Shown: positions 21,574 to 53,465 of the stretch, piece after piece | How positions within the stretch are numbered: position 1 is the stretch's first letter | How the letters are laid out: each line of letters starts with the position of its first letter | Source: a virus | Taxonomy: Duplodnaviria > Heunggongvirae > Uroviricota > Caudoviricetes | IMG/VR virus record: IMGVR_UViG_3300008262_000026 | DNA length: 64,000 nt | Reading direction: 5' to 3' (one strand) | Notes under the pieces: model-generated | Told to the model about the DNA's origin: nothing | The model's database searches: none | What the model saw: the letters and a program-made list of their open reading frames with translations, nothing else | Position numbers and translations under genes: made by a program

Positions 21574-21608
21574 ACTGGGCCCCTCAAAGTGCATCAGTAA
21601 TGTAAGCA
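21574..21608 (+). promoter_or_regulatory. motif B copy 1 (ACTGGGCCC-N4-AAAGTGCATCAGTAATGTAAG)
   Basis: 35-bp conserved element. ATG followed directly by TAA in this copy. Confidence 0.6.
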
Positions 21609-21791
21609 ACGAACATACTGACTAACTCTTGTGCTTGAACTAATCGCTTCTGCTCTGATTGCATCTTCAAACCGCTCAGAAGATGCGAATAAATTCTGTG
21701 CCTATGTTGTAGGTATTCCATACGCATCAGATAACTTCAGTGATGAAGAGTGGAATCGATTTGTCTATTGCCGAGAAACCCTGAAAACTAA

Positions 21792-22109
21792 TTGATTATG
21801 AAATTCTCTGACCTACAATTCAAACCACACCCCAACTATCCAGACACTGGTATTCAAGCAATCCACTACTTTGATAATGGATATGGTGTAAGTGTAGTGC
21901 GTTTTACCACTGAATTTGGTGGTTCTTATGGTGCTGATGTGGGACTCTATGAGGTAGCAATCCTCAAACGATATGTCCAAAAAGGATATGGTGCAGACCT
22001 TGATTGGGAATGGGAAATCTGCTATGATACTCCAATCACTGATGATGTTCTCGGGTGGCAATCCGAAGAAGAAGTTGAAGTCCTACTCTATGAGGTTGAA
22101 AATCTTTAA
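21792..22109 (+). CDS. hypothetical protein
   Basis: Plus-strand ORF. Confidence 0.5.
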   Translation: MIMKFSDLQFKPHPNYPDTGIQAIHYFDNGYGVSVVRFTTEFGGSYGADVGLYEVAILKRYVQKGYGADLDWEWEICYDTPITDDVLGWQSEEEVEVLLYEVENL

Positions 22110-22111
22110 TT

Positions 22112-22639
22112 ATGGCACAATTTAATGTTGGTGATATTGTCACCAAAATCTATGGTAAAAAGCCTGGTGAGGTTACTTACGCTTCTGGTGGATACTATAC
22201 TTGTAGGTATCTTCACTCCAGACAAACTTTTTATGCTTACGAGCGAGATCTAAAACTTTACGAAGAGGAAACTGAAATGACCACTGATACTAAAACTCTC
22301 TACTCCTTTACGATTGATGGTGAGAACCGTTGTCGTTATGGCACTCACATTGGCACCAACAGTCAGAACCAATATCTGATTGAAGAAAAGGGCACTGGTG
22401 CTATTCATGTCTTTGATAAGAAAGACCTGGAAGAAGTGGTTCCTTATACTTTCAGTGCCTCTATCAACGGCAAGGAAACTCATTACATCGGCACTCCTGA
22501 TGTTCTGAAGAAAGGTGATGTGCTGCTTCACACTGGTTCTACCACTCCTCAGGTTGCTGTTGTGACTGGTGTGGATACTAAGAACAAAGGTGCCCGTGCC
22601 AAATTCAAGGGTGCCAAGATCGTCACTGAGGCAATCTGA
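22112..22639 (+). CDS. hypothetical protein (175 aa)
   Basis: Plus-strand ORF followed by cassette 22640..22688. Confidence 0.5.
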   Translation: MAQFNVGDIVTKIYGKKPGEVTYASGGYYTCRYLHSRQTFYAYERDLKLYEEETEMTTDTKTLYSFTIDGENRCRYGTHIGTNSQNQYLIEEKGTGAIHVFDKKDLEEVVPYTFSASINGKETHYIGTPDVLKKGDVLLHTGSTTPQVAVVTGVDTKNKGARAKFKGAKIVTEAI

Positions 22640-22688
22640 AAACTGGCACAAGGGCATCCCACTGGTGCCCTTTGATGCCTTATAATAA
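22640..22688 (+). terminator. cassette A6 (terminator + TATAAT 22681..22686)
   Basis: Same architecture, interrupted T-run. Confidence 0.5.
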
Positions 22689-22709
22689 TCAAGTAAACAA
22701 CGAAACCCA

Positions 22710-23027
22710 ATGAAACCTATTCTTGCTATTTTCGGTGGTGTGATTGGTGTAGGTGCCCTGACATGGGGACTCACCTATCATGAACTGATCTTCACTGGAT
22801 TCTTTGCTCCTAAGTTTGAGAATGTTCGTAGGAACACTTTTGAGCAATCCAAATCCTTCCGAACTGGTGCTGTTCAAGAACTTCAGAACATGCAGTTTGA
22901 ATACATCAAAGCATCACCTGAACATAAGAAAGCACTTGCTGATGTGATTCGGCATCGTGCCGTTGAAGTTCCTGCTGATGCCATGCCTTCCGATCTTCAG
23001 TCCTTTATTTCTAATCTTCCTCAGTGA
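22710..23027 (+). CDS. membrane-anchored hypothetical protein
   Basis: N-terminal TM helix ILAIFGGVIGVGALTWGL. Confidence 0.5.
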   Translation: MKPILAIFGGVIGVGALTWGLTYHELIFTGFFAPKFENVRRNTFEQSKSFRTGAVQELQNMQFEYIKASPEHKKALADVIRHRAVEVPADAMPSDLQSFISNLPQ

Positions 23028-23032
23028 TTCTG

Positions 23033-23572
23033 ATGACTACTAACTATCCTGAATTTATTGCTTTTCCTAAAATTCCCCGCCTTCATAAGGAATGCGTGGT
23101 TACTGAAAAGATTGATGGAACTAATGGCATTATCTACATCACTGATGATGGAGATATGTTTATTGGAAGTCGCAATCGTTGGTTGAGTGCAGAATCCGAT
23201 AACTTTGGTTTTCATCGTTGGGCATCTGAAAATAAAGATGAACTGATGAAACTTGGTTTTGGTCGTCATCATGGAGAGTGGTGGGGTAGTGGCATTCAAC
23301 GAGGATACAATCTCCCTAAAGGTGAGAAGAGGTTTTCTCTGTTCAATGTGAATATCTGGAATTATGAAAACATTCCTGCCTGTTGCCATGTGGTTCCAAC
23401 TCTTTATACTGGAGAGTTTAGCACTAATGCAATTGATGATGTAATGTATAATCTTGAAACTAATGGTTCTGTTGCTTCTGAAGGTTTTATGAATCCTGAA
23501 GGTGTGATGATTTACCATTCTGCTGCTAATCATTATTTCAAGGCACCTTTTGATAAAAATCATAAGGGTTGA
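23033..23572 (+). CDS. ATP-dependent RNA ligase (PF09414/Rnl-like nucleotidyltransferase)
   Basis: Motif I KIDGTN, motif IV EGFMNPEGVMIY, motif V KAPFDK. ATG start chosen over the track's GTG. Confidence 0.6.
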   Translation: MTTNYPEFIAFPKIPRLHKECVVTEKIDGTNGIIYITDDGDMFIGSRNRWLSAESDNFGFHRWASENKDELMKLGFGRHHGEWWGSGIQRGYNLPKGEKRFSLFNVNIWNYENIPACCHVVPTLYTGEFSTNAIDDVMYNLETNGSVASEGFMNPEGVMIYHSAANHYFKAPFDKNHKG

Positions 23573-23633
23573 GGACACTTTCTAAACTGGCACAAGACCC
23601 TTCCCATTCTCAGCAAATCTACCCTATACTAAC
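23571..23633 (+). promoter_or_regulatory. cassette A7, degenerate (ACTGGCACAAG core, TATACT 23625..23630, no clean hairpin)
   Basis: Shares CACTTTCTAAACTGGCACAAG with the 25881 and 12133 copies. Confidence 0.35.
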
Positions 23634-23651
23634 TTCAGTTCAAACAAACAA

Positions 23652-24137
23652 ATGAAAACTATCGTTTCTGTTGCCGCACTTGCTATTCTTGGTCTTACCC
23701 TGACTGGTTGTGAAATTGAAGCGGATTCTGATGATACTCAACGTTCTCAACAAGAACGTATTCTGAAAGAGGCAACTTCGCAAACTGGTATGCCTGCTAT
23801 CAAGAACTTCCGTGAGCGTAAGTTGCTGAAGCAGATTATTGAAATGCGTGATCAGGATGGTGTTGTGACCTACACTTACACTCTTCCCGAAACTACTGGT
23901 GTTCCCGTGTTTCTGTGTAATTCTATTGGATATGGTATTCCTGCTGCTACACAATATACCAATCCTGAGAAGTATGAATACACTGGCACGACTCTTCCTC
24001 AGGCAGATCCTAATGGTTTGTTCTCTCCTGATAGTGCTGATGGCACTTGGGTGATGTGTTCTGATCCCAGTGGTAGTGGCAAGACCCGTCCTGTTTATGT
24101 TGAACCCCGTATTATTGTTTCTCCTTTCAAACTGTGA
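23652..24137 (+). CDS. lipoprotein
   Basis: Signal peptide plus lipobox LTLTGC. Confidence 0.6.
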   Translation: MKTIVSVAALAILGLTLTGCEIEADSDDTQRSQQERILKEATSQTGMPAIKNFRERKLLKQIIEMRDQDGVVTYTYTLPETTGVPVFLCNSIGYGIPAATQYTNPEKYEYTGTTLPQADPNGLFSPDSADGTWVMCSDPSGSGKTRPVYVEPRIIVSPFKL

Positions 24138-24331
24138 TGAACTCCAAAGGATTTACTCTTGTTGAACTGATGATTGCCGTTGCTATTCTTGGCATTCTTG
24201 CTGCTATTGGTATCGGTGCAATCTCAGGCAATTCTTTTATTCAAACCAAAGATTCTTGCCTGAATGCTGGTGGCAAATGGTCTGAGGGCATTCAATACGG
24301 TCGTGTGACTCAACTCTGTACTTATAACTGA
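24137..24331 (+). CDS. type IV pilin-like (prepilin N-terminal methylation motif) protein
   Basis: MNSKGFTLVELMIAVAILGILAAIGIG has the class III signal with G|F and E5. ATG start chosen over the track's GTG. Confidence 0.6.
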   Translation: MNSKGFTLVELMIAVAILGILAAIGIGAISGNSFIQTKDSCLNAGGKWSEGIQYGRVTQLCTYN

Positions 24332-24333
24332 TT

Positions 24334-24633
24334 ATGTCTCCTAAAAATTCTATTGGTAAGGAAAAGGCAATTCAACTCTACAACACCAACTGGTGGGAAG
24401 GACTTTCTTATGAAGAGATTGCTGAATTTCAACTTTTCACTTCTGAACTCTGTTGCCCCTTTGATGTATTTCACGAAGCAGTTGAGAAGTCACTGGGTCG
24501 TCCTGTATTCACTCACGAATTTGGATTGAACTATCAGGGTATTTGTAATGAGTTTCTTGGAGAAAAAGAATCTCCTACAACGGATGAAATTCTGAATCTG
24601 ATTCCTCAAGAAAAACTTATTGTTATCAAATAA
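24334..24633 (+). CDS. hypothetical protein
   Basis: Plus-strand ORF. Confidence 0.45.
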   Translation: MSPKNSIGKEKAIQLYNTNWWEGLSYEEIAEFQLFTSELCCPFDVFHEAVEKSLGRPVFTHEFGLNYQGICNEFLGEKESPTTDEILNLIPQEKLIVIK

Positions 24634-24872
24634 TGGACGAAGATACTAAACAATTTCTGAAGTTTGCCGGCATTTGTGCTGGCATTACCACTGTTTCAAT
24701 GCTGATTCTTGTAGGTGCCGGTTATACATTTGAGGCGATTGAAGACTCCATTAAATTCAATCGTTATCAAGATGCGATGAAAGAGTACCGACAATGTGCC
24801 CAAAAGTACCAAGATTCCCTATCTGTGAGACTTTATTGTGGCGATGAACCTTCCTCTACTATGATGCTATGA
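24633..24872 (+). CDS. membrane protein
   Basis: TM helix ICAGITTVSMLILVGAG. Confidence 0.45.
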   Translation: MDEDTKQFLKFAGICAGITTVSMLILVGAGYTFEAIEDSIKFNRYQDAMKEYRQCAQKYQDSLSVRLYCGDEPSSTMML

Positions 24873-25060
24873 TTGGACGCATTCTTGGTACAGGAATCGG
24901 AATACTTCTGATTCTCCTTGTGCTTCTTGCAAGAGGTATTCCTGTCTTGTTCTTTATCAAGATGCTGCCTCTTGTTCTGATTCTTATTCTGGGAGCAGCA
25001 TTTGTCTATGCTGGTCTCACTTCTGACTGATTGTTCTTTACTCAACTAACTTAAATTATT

Positions 25061-25882
25061 ATGTCTCTCGCAAAAGTTGCTATCGGTGGTGGTGCAGTTG
25101 TTCTTGCCCTTGTGCTCACTGCTGGTCAATTCACCACTATCAACACTGGTGAAAATGGCCTCTACACTGATTTCCAAGGTAAGGTGAAGAATGAGATTCT
25201 CACTCCTGGAATCAAGTATGATGGTCTGGGTTCTATCAAGGTATTCAATACCCGTAAGATTACTGTTCAATCTAACGACCTGACTCCTAAGACCAAAGAC
25301 AACACCATTATGAAAGATATGGATGTTGTGGTTACTTACAGTCTGTCTCCTACCAGTCTGTATGAGTTCTACACTGGTTATGATATTACTAATCACTCTC
25401 TGAGTCAGAATGGTCAGATTGAACTGATGGCAAGTTTCATCAAGCGTCTGATTACTTCTGCTGTGAATCAATCGGTTGATGAATATCCTGCTCTGGAAGT
25501 GAACAGCAGTCTGGATAAAATTCAGGAAACTATCAAACAGAACCTGAATATTGCTCTGGAGAAGAACAATCTTGCTGGTAAGATTGATATTGAATCTGTG
25601 GTGGTTGTAAAGGCAGACCTGCCCGAACAACTGGTTGATTCTGTGAATCGTGTGGTTGCTGCTCAATCTGACTACAAGGAACAGGAAGTGAAGACTCGCA
25701 CTGCTCAACTGAAAGCAGAACAAAACAAGGCACTTGCTTCTACTGTGACCAACCAATCTCTGGAGTATCAACGTAACGAAATTCTCAAGGCAGCATTTGA
25801 GAATGGTAGCATTCAGAAGATGGTGATTATCAATGGTGCTAAGATGGACTTCCTCCCTGGTGGTTTCTCTGACGGTAAGTGA
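25061..25882 (+). CDS. SPFH/band-7 (prohibitin/HflC-like) protein
   Basis: N-terminal TM helix followed by an SPFH-type domain (TTINTGENGL..., long coiled-coil tail). Confidence 0.7.
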   Translation: MSLAKVAIGGGAVVLALVLTAGQFTTINTGENGLYTDFQGKVKNEILTPGIKYDGLGSIKVFNTRKITVQSNDLTPKTKDNTIMKDMDVVVTYSLSPTSLYEFYTGYDITNHSLSQNGQIELMASFIKRLITSAVNQSVDEYPALEVNSSLDKIQETIKQNLNIALEKNNLAGKIDIESVVVVKADLPEQLVDSVNRVVAAQSDYKEQEVKTRTAQLKAEQNKALASTVTNQSLEYQRNEILKAAFENGSIQKMVIINGAKMDFLPGGFSDGK

Positions 25883-25940
25883 CACTTTCTAAACTGTCAC
25901 AAGGGCATCCTACAGGTGCCCTTTTCTGCTTTATAATACT
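25881..25940 (+). terminator. cassette A8 (terminator + TATAAT 25932..25937)
   Basis: Same architecture. Confidence 0.6.
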
Positions 25941-25960
25941 CTCATAAGCAAAGGGTTCAA

Positions 25961-26692
25961 ATGTTCCAATTCGCAGAAGTCGGTGGTGCAGTTCGGGATA
26001 AGTTCCTGGGACTGGATTCCAAAGACGTTGATTTTGTTGCTGTTCCTGAAAATGCTGATACCTTTCTGAATGCAGATGCCGCATTTATGTTTCTCTGCAC
26101 TCACCTGAAAGAACAGGGGTTCAAAGTATTTCTGGAAACTCCTGAATTCTTTACTGTTCGGGCACAAGTTCCTGATGGTCATCCACTGAAAGAACGCACT
26201 AATGTTGCTGATTTTGTGCTTGCCCGTAAGGATGGTCCCAGCAGTGATGGTCGCCGCCCTGACTTTGTTCTGCCCGGAACCCTGATGGATGACCTGCAGA
26301 GACGGGATTTTACCGTCAATGCGATGGCAATTCTGAATGGGGAACTGGTGGATCCATTCGGGGGCAGGAACGATCTGGAGGAGGGTCTGCTGCGGTTTGT
26401 GGGTGATCCTACCCAACGCATCGCAGAGGACGGTCTGAGGGTCATGAGGGCACTGAGGTTCTTTGTAACTAAAGGGTTTAATATGGATGCCGATACTTGG
26501 GATGCAATCAACAGTGATTTTGCTGCTGAAATGCTGACCAAAGTATCTGTAGATCGTATCCGTGAGGAACTGGAAAAAATGTTCTTTACGAATACTCTGT
26601 GGAGTCTGAAAGTTCTGGATGATTTGAATACCGAAGTTCGCAAGGCAATCTTCCGTGATGGCCTGCGTCTGATGCCCACTCTGAAAAAGTAA
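25961..26692 (+). CDS. nucleotidyltransferase, poly(A) polymerase/CCA-adding enzyme head-domain family
   Basis: GGAVRD...DVDF (GGxVRD plus DxD) signature of class II tRNA nucleotidyltransferases. Only 243 aa. Confidence 0.6.
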   Translation: MFQFAEVGGAVRDKFLGLDSKDVDFVAVPENADTFLNADAAFMFLCTHLKEQGFKVFLETPEFFTVRAQVPDGHPLKERTNVADFVLARKDGPSSDGRRPDFVLPGTLMDDLQRRDFTVNAMAILNGELVDPFGGRNDLEEGLLRFVGDPTQRIAEDGLRVMRALRFFVTKGFNMDADTWDAINSDFAAEMLTKVSVDRIREELEKMFFTNTLWSLKVLDDLNTEVRKAIFRDGLRLMPTLKK

Positions 26693-26765
26693 ATTATGAT
26701 TAACCTTCTAAAAATCGCATTCATTGCTTATATTGCAGTTGCTATCTACGGTCAGGGTATTAAAG

Positions 26766-27314
26766 ATGGAAAAAGAGAATGTAACAGACCTCAGGAAGCA
26801 CCTGTTGCAACGACACCTAAACCTTGAACTACATCGTCCATTTTTAGATGAAGAACTCAACATCGCCACTTTTTATTGTTGGAACCTATCAGGACAACTG
26901 GTAGGATACCAGCAATACAACCCAAATGGTGATAAGAAAATCTTCAACTCTAAACTGGAGGGCAAATACTACACCTACAGAAACAAGAATCACCAAACAG
27001 TAGTTGTATGGGGCACTGAGAGTCTCTATCAGTCAGATGGTGTTGTCTATCTGACTGAAGGAATCTTTGATGCTGCCCGTATGACAAATGTGGGACAATC
27101 TGCTCTTGCTGCTATGGCAAATAATCCACCAAAGGATTATAGAAACTGGTTGCAAATGCTAAATCGTCCTGTGGTTGCTGTTTGTGATAATGATGATGCA
27201 GGAAAAAAACTTGCCAAGTTCGGGCATTATGTAGAAGTGGTGCCTGATGGTAAAGATTTGGGTGATGCTCCTGATGATTATGTTAGGTATCTACTCAACA
27301 AGTATGCCACCTGA
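26766..27314 (+). CDS. Toprim domain protein
   Basis: LTEGIFDA ... VCDNDDAG ... (Toprim E and DxD motifs). Start trimmed to MEKENV. Confidence 0.5.
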   Translation: MEKENVTDLRKHLLQRHLNLELHRPFLDEELNIATFYCWNLSGQLVGYQQYNPNGDKKIFNSKLEGKYYTYRNKNHQTVVVWGTESLYQSDGVVYLTEGIFDAARMTNVGQSALAAMANNPPKDYRNWLQMLNRPVVAVCDNDDAGKKLAKFGHYVEVVPDGKDLGDAPDDYVRYLLNKYAT

Positions 27315-27364
27315 ACAACTGGCACACTGAGGCACCCAGAACGTTCTGGGTGCCTTTATAGTAA
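27308..27364 (+). terminator. cassette A9: perfect 24-bp palindrome GGCACCCAGAACGTTCTGGGTGCC + TTTATAGT
   Basis: CACCTGAACAACTGGCACA lead-in, 12-bp perfect stem. Confidence 0.55.
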
Positions 27365-27385
27365 CAAGATAATCAACCACACATC

Positions 27386-27937: not shown

Positions 27938-28000
27938 AATAAACAAACAAAGATAAGGCAGCAACTTACTGCACTAAACCGTTAATTTAGACACGCAAAA

Positions 28001-39268: not shown

Positions 39269-39303
39269 AACTGGGCCCCTTAAAGTGCAGTAGTAGTATG
39301 AAC
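39269..39303 (+). promoter_or_regulatory. motif B copy 7
   Basis: Contains the ATG of a 41-aa basic ORF (39298..39423). Confidence 0.6.
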
Positions 39304-40500: not shown

Positions 40501-40767
40501 ATGACTAAAGATGTTTTTGTTCCTTCCAATGGTATGCGTGTTGGAGATTCATTGAATATTATCTGTACTGGTAGAAAACAAATGACTGAACAAGAAGAAC
40601 AACTACTTAAAGAGGACTACAAAGAACTTGAAGAAGAAGTTGAAAAGTGCTTTGACCTTGCACAACGACTTGATGCTCTAAATCCTGAACTTGCTGGTGC
40701 TTTTACTGGTTCTCCAAGTCAAAGGATTGAACGACAACTTTATGCTCTTGGTATTTTGAATAACTGA
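40501..40767 (+). CDS. hypothetical protein (C-terminus paralogous to 756..923)
   Basis: See 756..923. Confidence 0.5.
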   Translation: MTKDVFVPSNGMRVGDSLNIICTGRKQMTEQEEQLLKEDYKELEEEVEKCFDLAQRLDALNPELAGAFTGSPSQRIERQLYALGILNN

Positions 40768-41202: not shown

Positions 41203-41396
41203 AAATCGTAGCACACACTCCCCGTGGAGTCTTTAAAAGCACAGATAAAGAATACAACCAAGAAGATTACTTGAATCTCTGCAATCTTCTGTCTCAAGTT
41301 ACACATATGAGTTACTTTAGTTTGGATACTGATACTGGAAGCATTTACCTTCCTAAGGAAATGATTCAGCGTTCTGTGTTTGTGATTGAAATGTAA
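41199..41396 (+). CDS. hypothetical protein
   Basis: Plus-strand ORF. Confidence 0.45.
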   Translation: MKIVAHTPRGVFKSTDKEYNQEDYLNLCNLLSQVTHMSYFSLDTDTGSIYLPKEMIQRSVFVIEM

Positions 41397-41430
41397 CTGG
41401 GCCCCTGAAAGTGCATCAGTAGTATGAACA
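41395..41430 (+). promoter_or_regulatory. motif B copy 8
   Basis: Contains the ATG of a 44-aa ORF (41424..41558). Confidence 0.6.
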
Positions 41431-41559
41431 CTCAACCAAAATCACAATCTTCCTGGATTGATGAACTTATCCGATGGGAAAATGCTCATCCAGAGTATAA
41501 ACCATTCAGAGAAGATGAGGATTCCCAACGTCGCCAAAACACCAAAGAAAACTACTGAA

Positions 41560-42577: not shown

Positions 42578-42612
42578 AACTGGGCCCGTCAAAGTGCATC
42601 AGTAGTATGAAC
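42578..42612 (+). promoter_or_regulatory. motif B copy 9
   Basis: Canonical copy. Confidence 0.6.
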
Positions 42613-42806
42613 GACACGACCTTTCCTGCCTGATGTATATTCTCAACGAAAACGCAAAGAATGACCCTGCAGTGCAACTTGCAATGCAGAACTATACCAA
42701 ACAAATTGCTGCTCAGCATCAGTATCAGCAGCAAGTTCGGGACGGTAAGATTAAACCCGAACCGATTAAAGTCTGGAACATTTCTGACCGCGACTGATTA
42801 CTCAAA

Positions 42807-42995
42807 ATGACTAAAACTCTGTTGCAATGTATCGCAACTGCAATCTCCACAGCACCAGCGGGAGAAACTTATGCAGACACAAGGAATAATGAGGCAAAAG
42901 CAGCACTTGAAGAAGTTCTTAAGTGCTTGAAAGAAGTCCCCAATCCAAATGCAAATAGGTCTGCAATCAATAGGATTGAAATGGAATTGATGTAA
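42807..42995 (+). CDS. hypothetical protein (paralog of 5412..5600)
   Basis: See 5412..5600. Confidence 0.5.
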   Translation: MTKTLLQCIATAISTAPAGETYADTRNNEAKAALEEVLKCLKEVPNPNANRSAINRIEMELM

Positions 42996-43055: not shown

Positions 43056-43289
43056 ATGGAACTCACTTCTCAACAACTGCAACAACTGATTGAAACCTAC
43101 GCTGAGCAAGTCGTAGAAGGAATGGATATTGATTGTCTGGTTCAGTTTGCATACGAAACCATTGTGGAGAATATGTCCAATATGGGACAAGAAGCAGTCC
43201 TTGATAACATTGAAGGTTACTGGGATACTGATGAAATTGAAAGTGTGATTGAATCTGTAGGTGCTGACCCTAAAGAGGTTCTTAACTGA
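43056..43289 (+). CDS. hypothetical acidic protein
   Basis: Plus-strand ORF. Confidence 0.45.
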   Translation: MELTSQQLQQLIETYAEQVVEGMDIDCLVQFAYETIVENMSNMGQEAVLDNIEGYWDTDEIESVIESVGADPKEVLN

Positions 43290-43323
43290 ACTGGGCCCGT
43301 GAAAGTGTATCAGTAGTATGACC
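43288..43323 (+). promoter_or_regulatory. motif B copy 10
   Basis: Canonical copy. Confidence 0.6.
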
Positions 43324-43492
43324 ACCCACGATTCCCAACAATGACTCAAACTAACGGAATGGTTCGGATTGCTGTTTATTTCAATCAAGACCTGAATGAT
43401 GATGAGGTGATGAAGTTTGTGGATAATCTACTCCACGAACACCCTAATGTTGCTGACTACGAATACGACCACTTTCCTATCCAGAACTGATT

Positions 43493-43918: not shown

Positions 43919-43953
43919 AACTGGGCCCGTGAAAGTGCATCAGTAGTGTAAGG
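43919..43953 (+). promoter_or_regulatory. motif B copy 11 (GTGTAAG variant)
   Basis: Variant copy. Confidence 0.6.
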
Positions 43954-44193: not shown

Positions 44194-44478
44194 ATGAGAA
44201 CTATCACCGTTGCTCCAATTTCTTTCGCTAAGGCAAACGAAAGGACTAACGAACTTTGCGAGAAGATTAACTATCTTTATCGTGATGGTCTTAGCACCAA
44301 ACAGATTGCAAAGGAACTGAATCTTTCTGCCTCTAATGTTCGCCGTTATTACTACGGTGTGCATAACTGTGCCCAGGCACATTATCACTGGAAAAATGCC
44401 TTCAATGCAAATAAGGCAGTTGGTTATATCCAAACCGCACTGAATCAAGTTCGTGTTGGTGCTTGCGTTTCTATCTGA
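44194..44478 (+). CDS. small helix-turn-helix DNA-binding protein (sigma-70 region-4/LuxR-like HTH)
   Basis: LSTKQIAKELNLSASNVRRYYYG is a typical HTH. Start trimmed to MRTITV. Confidence 0.5.
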   Translation: MRTITVAPISFAKANERTNELCEKINYLYRDGLSTKQIAKELNLSASNVRRYYYGVHNCAQAHYHWKNAFNANKAVGYIQTALNQVRVGACVSI

Positions 44479-45013: not shown

Positions 45014-45226
45014 ATGACTCTTTCCGCTAAAACAGTTCTGAATCTTGCTGCTGCTCTTACGCCAGAAGTTATAGATTACATTAACAACGACGAGCGATGG
45101 GTTGAACTAATGATGGAGGTGATTCCTGATGCACTTGAGAGTAAAATTGGGAAACTTGATTGCGACCTGATGATGGAACTTTCTATGTGCATTATGGATA
45201 GGATTTACCTGAAAACTAGCACCTGA
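45014..45226 (+). CDS. hypothetical protein
   Basis: Plus-strand ORF. Confidence 0.45.
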   Translation: MTLSAKTVLNLAAALTPEVIDYINNDERWVELMMEVIPDALESKIGKLDCDLMMELSMCIMDRIYLKTST

Positions 45227-45244
45227 TTATATCAACGAGGAAGG

Positions 45245-45360
45245 GAGTTTTGCCTCGCTTAAGTAAATAAAGTGACTTCCGCAGAGTGTAGATAATTCCA
45301 GAAGGATGTGGTTGTATATGAGAGGGGACTGGTAATCTCCTCTTTTTTATACTTTGTGAT
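45245..45360 (+). ncRNA. conserved ~115-nt non-coding element copy 1, ending in terminator hairpin with loop ACTGGTAAT (candidate sRNA)
   Basis: GGAAGGGAGTTTTGCCTCGCTTAAGTAAATAAAGTGACTTCCGCAGAGTGTAGATAATTCC...GAGAGGGGACTGGTAATCTCCTCTTTTTT. Confidence 0.4.
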
Positions 45361-45521
45361 TTTTCGGAGATTTCATCCTAGCACACCTCCCATAGTACCT
45401 GAACGCAGAATCACCGATTTTTTGGAAAACAGACCCCAGTGATACCAAGGGTTCTCAGCGGGTCTCACCTGAGACTGCCTGCCCATACCAGCATCCGCAG
45501 CAGAATCCCAAGAATGATAAT

Positions 45522-45556
45522 AACTGGGCCCGTGAAAGTGCATCAGTAGTATGAGC
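45522..45556 (+). promoter_or_regulatory. motif B copy 12
   Basis: Contains the ATG of a 56-aa ORF (45551..45721). Confidence 0.6.
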
Positions 45557-46490: not shown

Positions 46491-46494
46491 GTAT

Positions 46495-46529
46495 AACTGG
46501 GCCCGCGAAAGTGCATCAGTAGTATGACG
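46495..46529 (+). promoter_or_regulatory. motif B copy 13
   Basis: Contains the start codon of ligase 46524. Confidence 0.6.
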
Positions 46530-47450: not shown

Positions 47451-47454
47451 CTAT

Positions 47455-47489
47455 AACTGGGCCCGTGAAAGTGCATCAGTAGTATGAGC
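47455..47489 (+). promoter_or_regulatory. motif B copy 14
   Basis: Contains start of 47484. Confidence 0.6.
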
Positions 47490-47807
47490 AACACCGTTAC
47501 GATGGACCTTTCCACTGTAGACCAGCAAATCCGCATCCTTGATTCACTCAATGAGATTGCGTATATGAAGGTGAGTTCTTCTAATCTTGGTGGGACTACT
47601 TCATACTTCCTGCATATCTCACTGGACAAAAAAGAGGACTGGGTGAATAACATTTTTCACAACAGTCGCTATGCTATTTTTGCACTTCAATCCGGTAAGA
47701 TTGAACTGATTGCGAAACACTATCAAATGCCTAAGTTTCGTAAGTGCAATATCAAATCTGCTGCCCAAGTTGCGGAAAAGATTGCATCCTACTGCATTAA
47801 CAACTGA
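47484..47807 (+). CDS. hypothetical protein
   Basis: Starts in motif B. Confidence 0.45.
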   Translation: MSNTVTMDLSTVDQQIRILDSLNEIAYMKVSSSNLGGTTSYFLHISLDKKEDWVNNIFHNSRYAIFALQSGKIELIAKHYQMPKFRKCNIKSAAQVAEKIASYCINN

Positions 47808-47812
47808 TTATT

Positions 47813-48037
47813 ATGACTGACGCACAAAAGATTGAGTTTATTGTTAAGTTGCTGCAAGAGACAGCAAATAAAACTCACTGCAAAGATGGTGACGATTATG
47901 AAGATTATGACTCTGCGGATGAATGGTACAATCCAGCAGATAATGGTAATTTTGATGATGCTTTTGCAGATGGAGAAATCTGTGGAGAAATAGAATATGC
48001 CCGTACTATTCTTGCAAAGATTCAAGAACTGAACTAA
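47813..48037 (+). CDS. hypothetical acidic protein
   Basis: Plus-strand ORF. Confidence 0.45.
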   Translation: MTDAQKIEFIVKLLQETANKTHCKDGDDYEDYDSADEWYNPADNGNFDDAFADGEICGEIEYARTILAKIQELN

Positions 48038-48067
48038 CAACTGATTCACACTTAGCATTGAACACAA

Positions 48068-48391
48068 ATGACTAATCAAGGCAAACAATGTGAAAGGTGT
48101 GGTAAAGGCACCTACGAAATCGCTGACTTGAATGATGAAATTCACGGTGAACTTCATTGTAACAACTGCGGGCACTTTAGTAAACTTAATTCTACACCCA
48201 AAACGAAAGAAATCAAGTCCGTCATTGTAACACGTTCCATTGAGTATTCTCCCGAAGCATATCTTGAATGTTGCAAAGAAGATGATGAAGAACCCACACA
48301 AGAAGGTTTCATTGAATTCATCCAAGATTGGATTTATGATGACTTTAGGTGTGGTAACACTGCACAAGAAATCACCACTCTGAACTACTAA
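48068..48391 (+). CDS. hypothetical zinc-ribbon protein
   Basis: CERCGKG...CNNCGHF. Confidence 0.45.
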   Translation: MTNQGKQCERCGKGTYEIADLNDEIHGELHCNNCGHFSKLNSTPKTKEIKSVIVTRSIEYSPEAYLECCKEDDEEPTQEGFIEFIQDWIYDDFRCGNTAQEITTLNY

Positions 48392-48579
48392 TGGAAACTG
48401 CATTCGTCACGCCTAAGTCTAAGAAAGCAAAGAACAGGTTTGCTAATCTTATGGAGTCAAATCCTGAATGTTTCGTAGAACAAGACAAGGGAAATCGTTT
48501 CTTTCTGTGTTCTGCAAATAGCAAATACTTTTTCTGGGTTGACCTGAACAATGACCCAAATTGGCAAGTGGAGTTCTGA
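48391..48579 (+). CDS. hypothetical protein
   Basis: Plus-strand ORF. Confidence 0.4.
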   Translation: METAFVTPKSKKAKNRFANLMESNPECFVEQDKGNRFFLCSANSKYFFWVDLNNDPNWQVEF

Positions 48580-48731
48580 ATCAAAATGAATATGACACCC
48601 AAACTGTATGTTTTCGGCAACTATGATACAGGTGAAATGGTATCAGTAACCGCATCTTGTCTCACTGCCGCAACTGCAAAACTTCGTGATGATTATGAAT
48701 ATCACAACTTCTACGTTGAGTCACTGACTAC

Positions 48732-48766
48732 AACTGGGCCCGTGAAAGTGCATCAGTAGTATGACC
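48732..48766 (+). promoter_or_regulatory. motif B copy 15
   Basis: Contains start of 48761. The upstream ORF reads into the motif and stops at its TGA. Confidence 0.6.
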
Positions 48767-49102
48767 CCCAATCGCTTTCCAATGAACTTCAACGACATTC
48801 ACGATAGCATCAATCTTGCGTCCAAACTTGCCAAGGACAACTATGATGCTCGCAACGGTATCATTGACCGTCTGAATGAGACTGTTGTTGTTGATGTTCG
48901 TTCCCGTGCATCATATATTGCTGGTGAATGTTCGTACTATTTTCCGCTGCACAATCAGAACGGCGATAAGATTAACGAGGTCAAACTCTATTGTCGTTGT
49001 TCTCCCACTGTCAAAGGAGGAATTCGTTATTCCTATAAATTGAATGGTAAGGTCATTCCTCGTCATAAAATTGCCCAACGAATGAGTGATTTGGGAGTCT
49101 AA
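48761..49102 (+). CDS. hypothetical protein
   Basis: Starts in motif B. Confidence 0.45.
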   Translation: MTPNRFPMNFNDIHDSINLASKLAKDNYDARNGIIDRLNETVVVDVRSRASYIAGECSYYFPLHNQNGDKINEVKLYCRCSPTVKGGIRYSYKLNGKVIPRHKIAQRMSDLGV

Positions 49103-49256
49103 AACTTCTATGTCAAATGAACACTCACACCTCCTACTCAATGCCTAGTTTTTCAACCAGAGTTCTTGCCTTTCTGAATACTCTTACTGATGAACAGTTA
49201 GATGATTTCAGTGACGATGACATTATGCAACACATTCTAAATCAAGAGGAAAACCA

Positions 49257-49565
49257 GTGAAAAAGTATCAAGAACTGGAACAAAAGATTCGTGAACTTCA
49301 ACAAGAAGTAAATCGCCTGAAAGAAGAAGAAAAAGAGAACAAGATTCCTGATCTTTTTAATCTTGAACCCACACTTGAAGTTCTAAAGAATCCAAGGAAG
49401 AATTATGGTCGGTTGATTTTATCTTTTGAATGGGTTCTTACTCCTCAAGGTCATACGCATTGGGGAAACCTTTGCAGCGGAAACAAACCACTGACCGACC
49501 AGGATATTATTCAACTTCAAAAGTGGGTGATTCTTTACTATCAACAACAACAGAAATCCAAATGA
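49257..49565 (+). CDS. hypothetical coiled-coil protein (tandem paralog 1)
   Basis: MKKYQELEQKIRELQQEV...DQDIIQLQKWVILYYQQ. Confidence 0.5.
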   Translation: MKKYQELEQKIRELQQEVNRLKEEEKENKIPDLFNLEPTLEVLKNPRKNYGRLILSFEWVLTPQGHTHWGNLCSGNKPLTDQDIIQLQKWVILYYQQQQKSK

Positions 49566-49855
49566 AAAAGTATCAACAACTAGAAGAGAAAATCAAAGAA
49601 CTTCAACAAGAAGTAGAGCGTCTGAAAGAAGAAGAAAAAGAGAATAAACTTCCTGATTATTTCAAGATTGAAAAAGTTCTTGAGTTTCTAGAAGATACCA
49701 GTAAAGTTTGGTTGATTGATGAATGTTTTACTTGGGAATCTACTCCTCAAGGTGATGACTACTGGTGCGAACTTAGTGAGGAACTACGCCCAGTGAATGA
49801 CCAGGATATTATTCAACTCCAGAAGTGGGTGATTCTGTATTATCAACAGAACTGA
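49564..49855 (+). CDS. hypothetical coiled-coil protein (tandem paralog 2)
   Basis: MKKYQQLEEKIKELQQEV...DQDIIQLQKWVILYYQQN. The track's 49430 start is a read-through extension. Confidence 0.5.
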
Positions 49856-49861
49856 AAATGA

Positions 49862-49975
49862 GGAAGAAGTTTGCCTCAATTCACAAACAAAAGTGACTTC
49901 GTAGAGTGTGAATAATTCAATAGGATAGGTGATTGGGTGTATGAAGCAAGGACTGGTAATCCTTGCTTTTTTTAT
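49862..49975 (+). ncRNA. conserved ~115-nt non-coding element copy 2 (candidate sRNA)
   Basis: GGAAGAAGTTTGCCTCAATTCACAAACAAAAGTGACTTCGTAGAGTGTGAATAATTC...GCAAGGACTGGTAATCCTTGCTTTTTTT. Stem covaries with copy 1 and the loop is identical. Confidence 0.4.
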
Positions 49976-50289
49976 TGCTTATGAAAGATAAAAGGTATTA
50001 AAAACAATTAAAAAGCCATTTTTAAATATAAACGTGTAATTAAGCTGTGTGATACTTATTATGATTAAAGGGTGATTTTGATAAGAATTCGTATCAAATA
50101 GGGTTGGTCATTTAATACACTCAGAACCCTTAATAATCCATTTAAATCCTTCTAGACCCCTTAGTATTCTCATTTAAATCCAGCCAGGTCTTGTGATCTT
50201 AGCGAGCGTACCATAAGAAACGCAATTTGTCAAGGGATAACCACCGCCGCGAGATTTTGAAATCCTCATAAGGGACTCACAAAAGTATC

Positions 50290-50300
50290 AGAGGTGCTTA
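50290..50300 (+). promoter_or_regulatory. T4-type late promoter box TATAAATA
   Basis: CTTATAAATACTCC upstream of ORF 50317. Confidence 0.35.
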
Positions 50301-50316
50301 TAAATACTCCACGAAC

Positions 50317-50547
50317 TTGACAGAATCCTCAAGTTGTCGTACAGTAGCTACACGCACTAATTGGAGCAAAGTTCAGATGGTTTCGTCTTACGCACTGGCA
50401 CAAAAGAAGAAAGTTCGTGTAACCCTGGAACTCAATGTGTTTCAGGATTTTGATGCAAAACAGATTGATTTTGAAAAACTGTTTGAATTGGAACCTGCCG
50501 AAAGTGTGCAGGTCTACGTTGAGGATTTCTCTGAGAATCCTTGGTGA
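50317..50547 (+). CDS. hypothetical protein
   Basis: Preceded by exact TATAAATA at about 50293. Start may be the internal MVSSYA. Confidence 0.4.
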   Translation: MTESSSCRTVATRTNWSKVQMVSSYALAQKKKVRVTLELNVFQDFDAKQIDFEKLFELEPAESVQVYVEDFSENPW

Positions 50548-50558
50548 TTTCTATAACG

Positions 50559-50636
50559 CTCTGAGACCCCTGTAGAATCGCCTACAAGGGGCATCTGAAC
50601 CCTTGGATATACTTTGGGATACCCAAGGGTTTTTTA
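50559..50636 (+). terminator. two consecutive hairpins (GACCCCTGTAG.../...CTACAAGGGG and CCCTTGGATAT...ATACCCAAGGG + T6)
   Basis: Second hairpin is followed by TTTTTT. The first shares the GACCCCTGTA arm with the 37516 hairpin. Confidence 0.5.
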
Positions 50637-50665
50637 TATGAAATGAAGAGTTCCAGAGTGACTAC

Positions 50666-50700
50666 AACTGGGCCCGTGAAAGTGCATCAGTAGTATGAAC
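50666..50700 (+). promoter_or_regulatory. motif B copy 16
   Basis: Contains start of 50695. Confidence 0.6.
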
Positions 50701-51105
50701 ACTCCCCAAACCACGATGGAGATTCTTCAATATACTCAAGCACTCTGCGAATCGCTTGAGGTTGATTATCGTCTCTACTGTACAAGGTCTCACCGTCATT
50801 GTGTTGAGCGCAATCAAGATGCACACTATCACAATAAGTGTCTGCAGGAGATTGCGAATGGTACTTATACCTTCACCACTACCTTTGAGATAGTTGAAGG
50901 TCGCAAGTATTACAAGGTTGTGATGCTTACTTCTGGGAATCGGAGTGTTCATTGCTTTGTGAACAAGACGACTGGTGATGTATTGAAATCTGCCTCCTGG
51001 AATGCACCTGCAAAGGGAGTCAGATACAATCTTCTGAATAAAGAATCGCGGGAGAATTGCTACCGCTATGCAGACTGGAGTGGTCGCTATCTTTACCTTC
51101 GTTGA
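50695..51105 (+). CDS. hypothetical protein
   Basis: Starts in motif B. Confidence 0.5.
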   Translation: MNTPQTTMEILQYTQALCESLEVDYRLYCTRSHRHCVERNQDAHYHNKCLQEIANGTYTFTTTFEIVEGRKYYKVVMLTSGNRSVHCFVNKTTGDVLKSASWNAPAKGVRYNLLNKESRENCYRYADWSGRYLYLR

Positions 51106-51145
51106 GTTCATCTTTCTTTTCAATTCACCTTACTTGATTAAAACA

Positions 51146-51469
51146 ATGTTTGAACAATCCTTCCCCCCTGCTGATGCTATGGTCAATCAACTCTCCAAGA
51201 TTGAGTATAAGAAGCATTGGCAACAGTTTGTGACATTTACTCTGACTGTGTTTGCTATTGTAACTGTTCTGGCACAAGATGCATACAAGCGTGTGACTGA
51301 ATGGTATCAGAATGGCGGCAAAGAGCAACTGATTTCTTATGCTCACCGTTCCGCACTGTTTATCAATAAGCATACAGGTCTTGGTAATAAGTTCTATGCT
51401 GCACTGGTTTCTGTACATAATCGGATTGAACTTTCCGCGCATCAGGTAGATGATGCTTTGAGTGCCTGA
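51146..51469 (+). CDS. hypothetical protein
   Basis: Start trimmed. Confidence 0.4.
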   Translation: MFEQSFPPADAMVNQLSKIEYKKHWQQFVTFTLTVFAIVTVLAQDAYKRVTEWYQNGGKEQLISYAHRSALFINKHTGLGNKFYAALVSVHNRIELSAHQVDDALSA

Positions 51470-51491
51470 GTATAACTTATTCTTCACAATC

Positions 51492-51662
51492 ATGACTGAA
51501 AAAGAAATTCAAATTCGGGCACAAGTTCTTCCTCTGATTGATAGTCTGGCATCCAATTTGTTTGATGATGGACAGGCAATCTATGGGCGCAAGTTGGATA
51601 GAATTCTCATGAAGCTTGAGAGTATTCTAAATGAGACTTCCGACCAGTCTAAACCATTCTGA
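51492..51662 (+). CDS. hypothetical protein
   Basis: Start trimmed to MTEKEIQ. Confidence 0.4.
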   Translation: MTEKEIQIRAQVLPLIDSLASNLFDDGQAIYGRKLDRILMKLESILNETSDQSKPF

Positions 51663-51678
51663 ATGAGTGCCTGAGTTA

Positions 51679-51713
51679 AACTGGGCCCCTCAAACTGCAT
51701 CAGTAGTATAAGC
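51679..51713 (+). promoter_or_regulatory. motif B copy 17 (TATAAGC variant)
   Basis: Variant copy. Confidence 0.6.
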
Positions 51714-51897
51714 ACAACCGACACAAACAAATGGCAACCCTGAGCACTGAAAAGACCTATACTCTGATTCTTTCTGAGGATGAAATTCGGATGATTTTCT
51801 CTTCGGTTGAGAATGCTCTGGAGTCCAATCTGTTCTCTATGCAATATGAAAAGATTGCCAAGGATTTTGCAGAGGAAATTGCCCCTGAACTGATCTG

Positions 51898-51932
51898 AAC
51901 TGGGCCCCTTAAAGTGCATCAGTAGTATAAGC
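51898..51932 (+). promoter_or_regulatory. motif B copy 18 (TATAAGC variant)
   Basis: Variant copy. Confidence 0.6.
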
Positions 51933-51956
51933 ACAACCCCATCGCTACTTTCCCCA

Positions 51957-52268
51957 ATGCGTAAGATTGAAACCCTGATGAACTCTGCCATTCAGAATGA
52001 GCAGAACTGGTCTCAAGATAACACCACTGTTACTACTCTGAATGGTGTATCTTCTGTCCGTCTGCATGGCAATCTGATTGCTGATATTGGTGATACCTGG
52101 ATTCGTCTTTTTGACGGTGGGTATAAATCTAAAACCACCAAAAGCCGACTGAATGCTATTCTTGCAGTTCACGGCAATGGTGATAAAGTTTACCAGAAGA
52201 ACTTCAACTGGTACGTTGAAACTAACGGCACTGAAGTTCCCTTCTCCAATGGTCTCACTCTTCGCTGA
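51957..52268 (+). CDS. hypothetical protein
   Basis: Downstream of motif B 51898..51932. Confidence 0.45.
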   Translation: MRKIETLMNSAIQNEQNWSQDNTTVTTLNGVSSVRLHGNLIADIGDTWIRLFDGGYKSKTTKSRLNAILAVHGNGDKVYQKNFNWYVETNGTEVPFSNGLTLR

Positions 52269-52276
52269 GTGACTAC

Positions 52277-52311
52277 AACTGGGCCCCTCAAAGTGCATCA
52301 GTAGTATGAAC
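52277..52311 (+). promoter_or_regulatory. motif B copy 19
   Basis: Contains start of 52306. Confidence 0.6.
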
Positions 52312-52542
52312 ACCGATTCTCAAATGAACTTCGATTTCGTTAAGTCTGCCTCCGCTGCTGGTCTTAATCACCAGTGGAATCTTGTCTCTCATTATGTACT
52401 GCACAAGTCCAACTATCCCGGAATGACTGTTAGCGAAACCATCGCGTTCCGTGATGCACTTAAGGTTGAACTTGACGACCGTTGGGAGAATGGAGACAAG
52501 CAAGCTTTTGAGGAAATGATTGCACGAACCTTCGGTCGCTGA
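52306..52542 (+). CDS. hypothetical protein
   Basis: Starts in motif B. Confidence 0.45.
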   Translation: MNTDSQMNFDFVKSASAAGLNHQWNLVSHYVLHKSNYPGMTVSETIAFRDALKVELDDRWENGDKQAFEEMIARTFGR

Positions 52543-52546
52543 GTGA

Positions 52547-52580
52547 AACTGGGCCCGTCAAACTGCATCTATAGTGTAGG
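52547..52580 (+). promoter_or_regulatory. motif B copy 20 (CTATAGTGTAGG variant)
   Basis: Variant copy. Confidence 0.55.
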
Positions 52581-52617
52581 GGCACAATTCCCACCACAAT
52601 TCTTTACTCTAACTCTC

Positions 52618-52830
52618 ATGTTTGATTTTGATCAGTTTCTCAAGGATCTTCTCTCTGAAGGTTTTGTCTGGTCTGATGATTATCTGGTCAAGAAAGATAA
52701 CAACGGTGTCGTTCATACCTATACTCCCAACGAGAATGATTGTTCCTATTTGCATCAACAATTCCGTTGCATTGTAGGTGTAGGAAATGAGTTGATCGGT
52801 AGCAATCGCATTGTCTGCACTTTCTCCTGA
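52618..52830 (+). CDS. hypothetical protein
   Basis: ATG start chosen over the track's GTG lying inside motif B. Confidence 0.4.
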   Translation: MFDFDQFLKDLLSEGFVWSDDYLVKKDNNGVVHTYTPNENDCSYLHQQFRCIVGVGNELIGSNRIVCTFS

Positions 52831-52864
52831 TTCCTTTACACTTACTCCAGGGGTTCTAAGACAT

Positions 52865-52899
52865 AACTGGGCCCCCGAAAGTGCATCAGTAGTATAAGG
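52865..52899 (+). promoter_or_regulatory. motif B copy 21
   Basis: TATAAGG variant. Confidence 0.6.
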
Positions 52900-52914
52900 A
52901 CAAACGAAACCAAG

Positions 52915-53106
52915 ATGATCACCGAATCCTACATCTCTGCTCTCTACTGGTTCGCCTACAGTGTTGTTAACCTTGCAGAGCAGTTTAACATTAAGCACTC
53001 AATGGGTGACTGGTTCAACTTCGAAATCGGTGCAGATGTGTTTCACGATGATATCTGCCGTGCCCTTGCTGTTGATACTGAATCCAAGCAAGTCTACGGG
53101 TTCTGA
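52915..53106 (+). CDS. hypothetical protein
   Basis: Downstream of motif B. Confidence 0.45.
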   Translation: MITESYISALYWFAYSVVNLAEQFNIKHSMGDWFNFEIGADVFHDDICRALAVDTESKQVYGF

Positions 53107-53148
53107 TACCCAATCCGTTTCCCACTAACTAACACTTTTCTTCCCCCA

Positions 53149-53394
53149 ATGACTAACACCTACCAGACCAATCTGACCGACCGCACCTATAACGGTTGGA
53201 CCAACTATGAGACCTGGAATGTTGCTCTCTGGATTGGCAATGATGAGGGTCTGTATAACCTTGCCCGTGAGTGTGGTGATTATCAAACCTTCCTGAATGA
53301 GGTCGGTGTGGGATACTCTACTCCTGACGGTGTGAAGTTTGCCGATCCGAAAGTTAACGTGATTGAGATTAACTCTGACGTGTTTGATTTCTGA
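53149..53394 (+). CDS. hypothetical protein
   Basis: Plus-strand ORF. Confidence 0.45.
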   Translation: MTNTYQTNLTDRTYNGWTNYETWNVALWIGNDEGLYNLARECGDYQTFLNEVGVGYSTPDGVKFADPKVNVIEINSDVFDF

Positions 53395-53430
53395 GTGGCC
53401 AGTTACACTTAAGAGTTCCCAGTTAACAAC

Positions 53431-53465
53431 AACTGGGCCCGTCAAAGTGCATCAGTAGTATGACG
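53431..53465 (+). promoter_or_regulatory. motif B copy 22
   Basis: Contains start of 53460. Confidence 0.6.

Follow-up and report, generated by a model that had tools for sequence, protein, structure and literature searches.

Promoter-early stem-loops (PeSLs) are known from the T4-like phages RB49/phi1, T4/PST and KVP40/nt-1 (PMC2839356; PMC4122927). In S-PM2, their density was judged too low to explain gene acquisition (PMC4503421), and this remark is all that literature searches for the motif treated here or for cyanophage PeSLs returned, none of the sources found describing the element itself. Here we analyze a 35-bp repeat (the element) in the IMG/VR virus record IMGVR_UViG_3300008262_000026; the whole stretch of 64,000 nucleotides is referred to as the window. 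Similarly to PeSLs, the copies of the element are promoter-type repeats of high similarity and uniform orientation, densely spaced between the genes of a hyperplastic region; they stand ahead of small open reading frames (ORFs) of unknown function with a start codon at or shortly after the 3' end of the repeat, and they bound the homologous blocks of relatives, in which cassettes are inserted, replaced and moved. Unlike PeSLs, the element has neither a stem-loop terminator, nor a sigma-70-type -35, nor a Shine-Dalgarno sequence; its putative -10 overlaps an apparently translated ATG, its box at -37 to -25 varies among sister lineages, it carries stop codons in every frame, and it belongs to a cyanomyovirus-like branch. 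We propose, as the reading that is on balance probable, that the element is a PeSL-like module that lacks a terminator and combines promoter and recombination functions, which heads and bounds cassettes in the hyperplastic region and whose promoter activity and start site we infer.

The window contains 23 GGGCCC hexamers where 2.7 would be expected, and 22 of these 23 sites sit in one repeat, always on the + strand, between 21573 and 53465 (Table 1), which agrees with the 22 copies claimed in the first-pass annotation. With position 1 assigned to the first A of AACTGGGCCC, the consensus TGA-n4-AACTGGGCCC-N3-AAAGTGCATCAG-TAGTAT-RA consists of a TGA (-6 to -4), four nucleotides, AACTGGGCCC (1-10), three variable nucleotides (11-13), AAAGTG (14-19), CATCAG (20-25), TAGTAT (26-31) and R-A (32-33). 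The same annotation had described a 4-nt spacer after GGGCCC; the spacer is 3 nt long, and the consensus as written there finds no match even when three mismatches are allowed. Its further observations, that conservation extends over the full length of the element and that the element points in the direction of the genes, with a -10-like hexamer at its end, are borne out. The stop codon of the upstream gene, usually the TGA of the consensus, lies 0-8 nt 5' of the element and is conserved along with it. The stops of the element (TGA at -6 and 12, TAG at 26, TRA at 31) cover all three frames, and about 12% of the upstream ORFs terminate within it.

The element was found in 26 IMG/VR stretches, in 87 metagenome stretches (freshwater, estuarine, TARA and GOS) and in one small contig of a freshwater metagenome-assembled genome (MAG). 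Most of these stretches align to the window at 66-82% identity and in patches only. Altogether, 275 non-redundant copies were collected from 115 sequences, with no contig having copies on both strands; the search patterns fixed some bases in at least one copy per contig, and the remaining copies were gathered with up to six mismatches. Conservation was assessed over the window and the IMG/VR loci, which together provide 140 non-redundant copies. G5-C10, A14-16, T18, G19 and T29 never vary (140/140), and T26, A27 and T31 are kept in 136-139 copies. Positions 11, 13, 28, 30 and 32 vary freely (G32 is present in 58% of the copies), and the variation at 28 and 30 gives the hexamer a -10-type TAnTnT pattern. 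Conservation also covers C35-A36, and G nearly vanishes from about position 35 to the ATG of the gene. A megablast search with 8 kb against cultured phages gave no match at the DNA level, and the exact element has no match in 50,697 phage records. The presence of the element in more than 110 metagenomic contigs, the genes of which have diverged to 70-80% identity, together with a related skeleton in cultured phages, indicates that it is not a recent local expansion, the possibility that the first-pass annotation had tied to one of its refuting outcomes.

The skeleton is shared by the cultured relatives S-SM2, SynMITS9220M01 and P-TIM68 and consists of a 13-nt box, AAA(G/T)(T/C)G, 6 nt and TAnTnT (Table 1). 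The box is lineage-specific, with GGGCCC in the window, GGGGGGTCGC in S-SM2, TTACTCACC in SynMITS9220M01 and TTAGTTACC in P-TIM68; if TAnTnT is a -10, it falls at about -37 to -25, with GGGCCC centered near -30. The P-TIM68 version carries AAGGA. A single similar core, GGGGTGAAAATGCTGTATAGTATGTGAG, with a spacer one base shorter, lies 5' of gp55 in Syn9 (NC_008296, ~43,145-43,193).

The last hexamer of the element varies like a -10 (TAGTAT, TAATGT or TAGTGT), the TAnTnT pattern being common to four lineages, with a variant form in P-TIM68. The real ATG follows 14-31 nt (commonly 15-20 nt) after it; behind the TATAAT of the class-A repeats described below, this distance is about 21-23 nt. We propose that the host RNA polymerase would use TAGTAT (26-31) as the -10, while AAAGTG and the clade-specific GC-rich box (GGGCCC, centered near -30) would replace the -35; a start site near position 36-38 would generate short, G-poor leaders without a Shine-Dalgarno sequence. 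The start codon is either embedded in the element or located 15-30 nt downstream, the leaders are nearly free of G and contain no Shine-Dalgarno sequence, and the earlier remark that there is no room for one before the embedded ATG holds. Since the copies at 45522 and 50666 follow terminator-like hairpins, transcription must restart at these sites. A consensus scan showed no enrichment of other promoter-like sites over 34-54 kb (47 found versus 41 expected).

The first-pass annotation had proposed that the element usually embeds the start codon of the next gene. An ATG is indeed embedded at 30-32 in 12 of the 22 copies of the window; three further copies contain TAATGTAAG, in which the ATG is followed at once by TAA, and seven have ATA or GTA at this place. 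The idea that some 25 very small genes each carry a copy of their own did not survive: the copies head cassettes of 1-9 ORFs, comprising some 85-90 ORFs altogether. The N-termini starting with MT, MN or MS, which had been attributed to the element, do exist, but they are also common inside the cassettes, because of ATGA stop-start overlaps.

The embedded AUG shares the frame of the main ORF, with no stop in between, in 123 of 136 non-redundant copies, and the same is true of 30 of the 39 gene families; chance alone would give one third. A second in-frame ATG follows at codon 5-8 (15-24 nt downstream) in 41 of 71 copies with the embedded ATG. In the DUF6267 and helicase genes, this second ATG aligns with Met1 of the homologs: the window has MTTKQ-MQNIHIDHPE where S-SRM01 has MKNLHLQHPE, and the helicase of S9220M01 begins with MQ. 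In most of the copies with an embedded ATG, the second ATG is the ancestral start. Within gene families, copies with an embedded ATG show spacings of 15, 18, 21 or 24 nt only, whereas those without it differ by single bases (e.g. 16-20 or 19-33 nt). The out-of-frame cases are mini-uORFs (short upstream ORFs) whose stop overlaps the real ATG; two are found in the window (42607-42633 and 43318-43344), and several six-codon uORFs in P-TIM68. The constraint on frame and the multiple-of-three spacing imply that ribosomes evidently read the embedded AUG, in line with an action at the RNA level, which the first-pass annotation had raised as an alternative for the element.

Because the embedded ATG overlaps TAGTAT, transcripts initiated from this hexamer would lack it, and such mRNAs would use the second ATG 15-24 nt downstream. 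With few terminators and many tandem promoters, most of the mRNA over a given gene would be read-through transcript containing the whole element. On this read-through mRNA, the element would supply the upstream gene with stops in three frames and, with G at position 32, would present an AUG used by ribosomes; an AUG so used is therefore either kept in frame, or has its stop overlapping the real AUG, or is followed by a stop at once.

The order of homologous blocks is permuted in the related contigs L001, L003, L005 and L010-L012, and the blocks start exactly at the element. The DUF6267 cassette (46495 onwards) stands directly after the 39080 gene in L010, L011 and L012 and between the 39080 and 39298 genes in L005, while in the window 7 kb of other cassettes lie between the 39080-gene region and this cassette. 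Ends of homology blocks fall within a 56-nt interval around the element in 26-30% of cases versus 3.7% expected, an enrichment that is partly trivial, the elements being at gene boundaries. Blocks that span the element with at least 60 nt aligned on each side amount to 14 of 357, and one downstream gene family with 20 copies is preceded by 12 different upstream families. According to mutual information, positions up to 3 travel with the upstream family (z 4-12) whereas from position 17 onwards the association is with the downstream family (z up to 14), which means that linkage breaks within the invariant core. It is within the roughly 30 near-identical bases that crossovers take place, so that cassettes are shuffled between and within genomes. 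These comparisons show shuffling of cassettes at the element, the behavior that has been proposed for PeSLs.

Several points, to which the trivial part of this enrichment belongs, weigh against the promoter module that we favor. No sigma-70-like -35 is present 17 bp 5' of the -10, where the sequence reads CTGGGC, and the consensus scan does not call the element. The DUF6267 start in S-SM2 and SynMITS9220M01 is the embedded ATG, and some families in the clade of the window likewise have only that ATG; with TAGTAT as the -10, such genes could not be translated from the adjacent copy and must rely on read-through. Of the 13 copies in P-TIM68, 4-5 have a second hexamer that does not end in T, while the upstream TAAATT (13-18) is perfect.

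The strongest alternative, to which we assign a minor but appreciable probability, is a promoter with (T/G/C)AAAGT at 13-18 as the -10 and a start at about 24-26, which would place the embedded AUG 4-6 nt from the 5' end; TAGTAT would then be initial transcribed sequence, possibly a sigma-dependent pause, or else tandem promoters would feed both ATGs. The "essentially leaderless" transcripts of the first-pass annotation are retained in this form only, since a -10 at TAGTAT would overlap the embedded ATG and leave it upstream of any resulting start. A start at 24-26 accounts for the genes that begin solely at the embedded ATG, and position 25 is a purine in 137 of the 140 copies; it leaves unexplained both the second in-frame ATG and the onset of the G-poor leader at about position 35. 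A14 and T18 of the upstream hexamer are invariant in the clade of the window, its first base there being, however, G or C instead of T; SynMITS9220M01 has TAAAGT at this place and all 13 P-TIM68 copies have TAAATT, whereas in 8 of the 13 S-SM2 copies the hexamer ends in C instead of the critical -7 T. It is because of these missing first and last T residues that TAGTAT is preferred as the -10. A leaderless-type -10 ending 6-8 nt before the start codon was not found either, positions 18-23 and 19-24 reading TGCATC and GCATCA, respectively.

Other promoter types were considered and rejected. A standard sigma-70 promoter with a -35 was discarded, the scan leaving the element uncalled and finding such sites unenriched. 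The remaining resemblances were inspected by eye. The GG-N10-GC spacing of sigma-54 promoters was not seen, and cyanobacteria are not known to have sigma-54. Similarity to promoters of the T7/SP6/Syn5-type single-subunit polymerases is partial, with disagreement at the variable positions, and these phages are not known to have a polymerase of this type. NtcA, LexA and HLR1 boxes show at least two mismatches and are not kept in the sister lineages.

It is quite improbable that the element lacks promoter activity and works at the RNA level only, as translation-initiation or processing "punctuation" in long polycistronic transcripts. The embedded AUG clearly read by ribosomes, the stops in all three frames and the mini-uORFs coupled to the real start speak for this; G32, however, is present in just 58% of the copies while TAnTnT is nearly invariant, copies behind terminators need a promoter, and no other promoter-like sites are enriched over 24 kb. 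RNA folding of six copies gave -5 to -13 kcal/mol, no better than shuffled sequences (z +1.0 to -1.9, five of six between -0.4 and +1.0), so that no stable or conserved RNA structure supports the RNA-only reading. A hairpin or riboswitch-like structure was rejected on the same grounds, and also because variants break the weak ACUGG/UCAGU pairing without compensation. No upstream stem-loop terminator and no T-run accompany the folded copies; the copy at 50666 is the only one with a separate terminator, 38 nt 5' of it. Rfam contains no family matching the element, the sole matches being to tRNA models at 29.6-30.3 kb.

Least probable of all is a site-specific recombination site or selfish mobile repeat, attC-like, with GGGCCC as the core at which a dedicated enzyme would cut or cross over and the promoter features secondary. 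In its favor, the element bounds the cassettes, linkage switches in the interval 4-16 that contains the invariant GGGCCC palindrome, and neighbors are seldom conserved across the element. Against it, the 95 ORFs of 21-56 kb yielded no match to an integrase or recombinase family, the sister boxes GGGGGGTCGC and TTACTCACC are not palindromic, this reading explains neither the strict co-orientation nor the constant spacing from gene starts nor the -10-like pattern, and T4-type homologous recombination on ~30-50 bp suffices, as proposed for PeSLs (PMC4122927).

A different repeat, class A, is present in about 12 copies at 1-28 kb (Table 1). It consists of GACACyTGAAnAACTGGCACAAGG, a GC hairpin (GGGCAyCC..GGTGCCC), a T-run and TATAAT, with an ATG about 21-23 nt 3' of TATAAT; several of its hairpins were called terminators by the scan. 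Class A shares with the element its orientation, its role at the head of cassettes, the AACTGG start and the CA-rich leaders, and differs from it by a true terminator hairpin, a consensus TATAAT and its range (1-28 kb versus 21.5-53.5 kb). TGGCACA-type elements resembling class A occur in B23, S-SRM01 and Syn9. Class A fits the published description of PeSLs, a stem-loop followed by an early promoter (PMC4122927). Class A being the terminator-bearing PeSL type, the element is a second, terminator-less class (class B) in the same genome. The distinct temporal class suggested in the first-pass annotation for the genes headed by the element is plausible from this arrangement, because another promoter class occupies 1-28 kb.

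The element further resembles the T4 middle promoters (a MotA box at -30 with a sigma-70 -10) and the PmSLs of nt-1 in its TAnnnT -10 and in a box near -30 that replaces the -35; AACTGGGCCC, centered near -30, is unrelated in sequence to the MotA box (a/t)(a/t)(a/t)TGCTTtA. We tentatively raise the rather unlikely possibility that the -30 box is the site of a co-evolving phage-encoded activator replacing the -35 by a MotA/AsiA-like appropriation of sigma, which would make the element a hitherto unrecognized, activator-dependent (middle-mode) promoter class of this cyanomyovirus branch, and one whose promoter doubles as a translated start on read-through mRNA. Cyanomyoviruses have been reported to be without MotA and AsiA, and no MotA or AsiA domain is found among the 25 Pfam families matched by the 95 ORFs of 21-56 kb. 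One candidate activator is the 94-residue product of ORF 44194-44478 (+), which the first-pass annotation had singled out as a possible regulator. Its match to a sigma-70 region-4 or LuxR-type helix-turn-helix (HTH) is borderline (25.6 bits versus a cut-off of 25.7), and homologs were found in three related contigs (L010, L038 and L073; 34-38% identity) and none in cultured phages, the relatives with the element skeleton included. A role of this protein as the conserved regulator was therefore rejected, there being no link between this protein and the cultured carriers of the skeleton.

Integron attC cassettes also form co-oriented arrays separated by a short conserved exchange site. The element differs from attC in that no integrase accompanies it in the interval searched, each cassette has a promoter-like site, and it is the near-identical sequence, rather than a conserved structure, that is maintained.

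The window belongs to an uncultured T4-like (cyano)myovirus. The best matches of its gp6 baseplate gene (56680-58590), at 58-61% amino acid identity, are from B3/B23, S-SM2, P-TIM68 and S-B05, which are Synechococcus and Prochlorococcus myoviruses. In a simple ORF map, every gene is on the + strand, with tight packing and frequent ATGA overlaps, and the 22 copies occupy 32 kb directly upstream of the gp25/gp6 module, a hyperplastic region of small variable ORFs. The cassettes include early-type functions (a helicase, two DNA methylases, an anti-restriction protein and an RNA ligase), along with a DUF6267 protein and a tRNA nucleotidyltransferase. Possible hosts are picocyanobacteria of freshwater or estuaries, and heterotrophs. 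The MAG contig (L033; CAYVBV010000194.1, 2.5 kb) carries three copies of the element and is binned with an uncultured freshwater Polynucleobacter; it is probably phage DNA in the wrong bin, and an assignment of the host from this single 2.5-kb contig was dropped as uninformative.

Table 1 Copies of the element and terminator-like hairpins in the window, class-A repeats and versions of the element in sister lineages
Feature	Coordinates	Strand	Sequence or description
Copy 1	21573..21607	+	TACTGGGCCCCTC-AAAGTG-CATCAG-TAATGT-AAG; ATG-TAA start-stop; next ATG ORF from 21798
Copy 2	30288..30322	+	TAATGT-AAG, start-stop; gene start 30335
Copy 3	31593..31627	+	Most divergent, AAGTGGGCCC...TAATAT-AGG; gene start 31646; heads 8-gene cassette
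Copy 4	34086..34120	+	TAATGT-AAG; gene start 34132
Copy 5	35322..35356	+	CTATAGTGT-AAG; downstream start 35371 or 35456
Copy 6	36226..36260	+	Embedded ATG 36255 in frame; second ATG 36270 is the helicase start as in homologs (MQ...)
Copy 7	39269..39303	+	Embedded ATG 39298 is the sole start of a conserved 41-aa ORF; heads 9-gene cassette
Copy 8	41395..41429	+	Embedded ATG 41424 out of frame with gene at 41461
Copy 9	42578..42612	+	Embedded ATG opens 8-codon uORF (42607-42633); its TGA overlaps real ATG 42633 (TGATG)
Copy 10	43289..43323	+	Embedded ATG opens 8-codon uORF (43318-43344); stop overlaps real ATG 43341 (ATGA)
Copy 11	43919..43953	+	TAGTGT-AAG; gene start 43965; cassette holds HTH ORF 44194-44478
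Copy 12	45522..45556	+	~170 nt 3' of terminator 45320-45344; embedded ATG 45551 in frame; second ATG 45566
Copy 13	46495..46529	+	Embedded ATG 46524; second ATG 46539 is the DUF6267 start aligning with homologs (MQNIHIDHPE)
Copy 14	47455..47489	+	Embedded ATG 47484 in frame; second ATG 47502
Copy 15	48732..48766	+	Embedded ATG 48761 in frame; second ATG 48782; upstream ORF 48586-48759 ends in element
Copy 16	50666..50700	+	38 nt 3' of terminator 50612-50628; embedded ATG 50695 in frame; second ATG 50716
Copy 17	51679..51713	+	TAGTAT-AAG; gene start 51731
Copy 18	51898..51932	+	TAGTAT-AAG; gene start 51957
Copy 19	52277..52311	+	Embedded ATG 52306 in frame; second ATG 52324
Copy 20	52547..52581	+	CTATAGTGT-AGG; gene start 52618
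Copy 21	52865..52899	+	TAGTAT-AAG; gene start 52915
Copy 22	53431..53465	+	Embedded ATG 53460 in frame; second ATG 53478; last copy before baseplate (gp25/gp6) module
Terminator-like hairpin and T-run	45320..45354 (hairpin 45320-45344)	+	Within array
Terminator-like hairpin and T-run	50612..50638 (hairpin 50612-50628)	+	Directly 5' of copy 16
Class A, full copies	1173, 5150, 11898, 12469, 14865, 22641, 25892		
Class A, partial copies	12142, 17889, 23585, 27317, 27892		
SynMITS9220M01, 8-10 copies			ATGTTACTCACCyCT-AAAGTG-TCCCTA-TAGTAT-G
S-SM2, 13 copies			AAAGGGGGGTCGCnn-AAAG(C/T)G-TCCCTA-TAGT(A/G)T
P-TIM68, 13 copies			AATGTTAGTTACCTCT-AAATTG-ACTTAT-TAATGT-AATCAAGGAATGAAATT-ATG

The cassette array (22000-54000) has a G+C content of about 0.41-0.45, higher than that of 1-20 kb (0.34-0.36) and of the structural genes beyond 56 kb (0.29-0.32). 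Distant cassettes share paralogous segments that are 73-83% identical (75-233 and 8630-8788; 779-919 and 40620-40760; 5422-5545 and 42811-42934; 49236-49399 and 49541-49704), including pairs between the class-A and class-B parts of the window, and there is a tandem duplication near 49.2-49.8 kb. The hairpins at 45320-45344 and 49943-49969 (+) are strong, terminator-like and have the loop ACTGGTAAT in common, and both lie in ORF-poor stretches (45226-45522 and 49855-50377) of the otherwise tightly packed array. Three matches to tRNA models (45-55 bits) on the + strand (29670-29786, 29898-30015 and 30162-30274) lie in a 730-nt gene-free gap just 5' of the copy at 30288. Each has an insertion of 43-60 nt in the anticodon loop, and the inserts share the hairpin GTTATCTTGTAAAAGATAC and a CAGCAA motif; ARAGORN called none of the three. 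Possible identities are phage tRNAs with an interruption or an intron, or decoys that resemble tRNAs.

The T4-like cyanomyoviruses rank, together with their aquatic relatives, among the most abundant phages, and the greater part of their unknown genes lies in hyperplastic regions. A 35-bp module at the head of cassettes provides a practical marker for transcription units and mobile cassettes in metagenomic contigs, and it extends the modular shuffling of the PeSL type to a branch from which dense PeSLs have not been reported in the searchable literature. The element is also a natural translation experiment, in which an AUG within the -10 of a putative promoter forces the length of the leader to be a multiple of three. 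If the -30 box is truly the site of an activator, it would show how transcription is timed in phages reported to be without MotA and AsiA.

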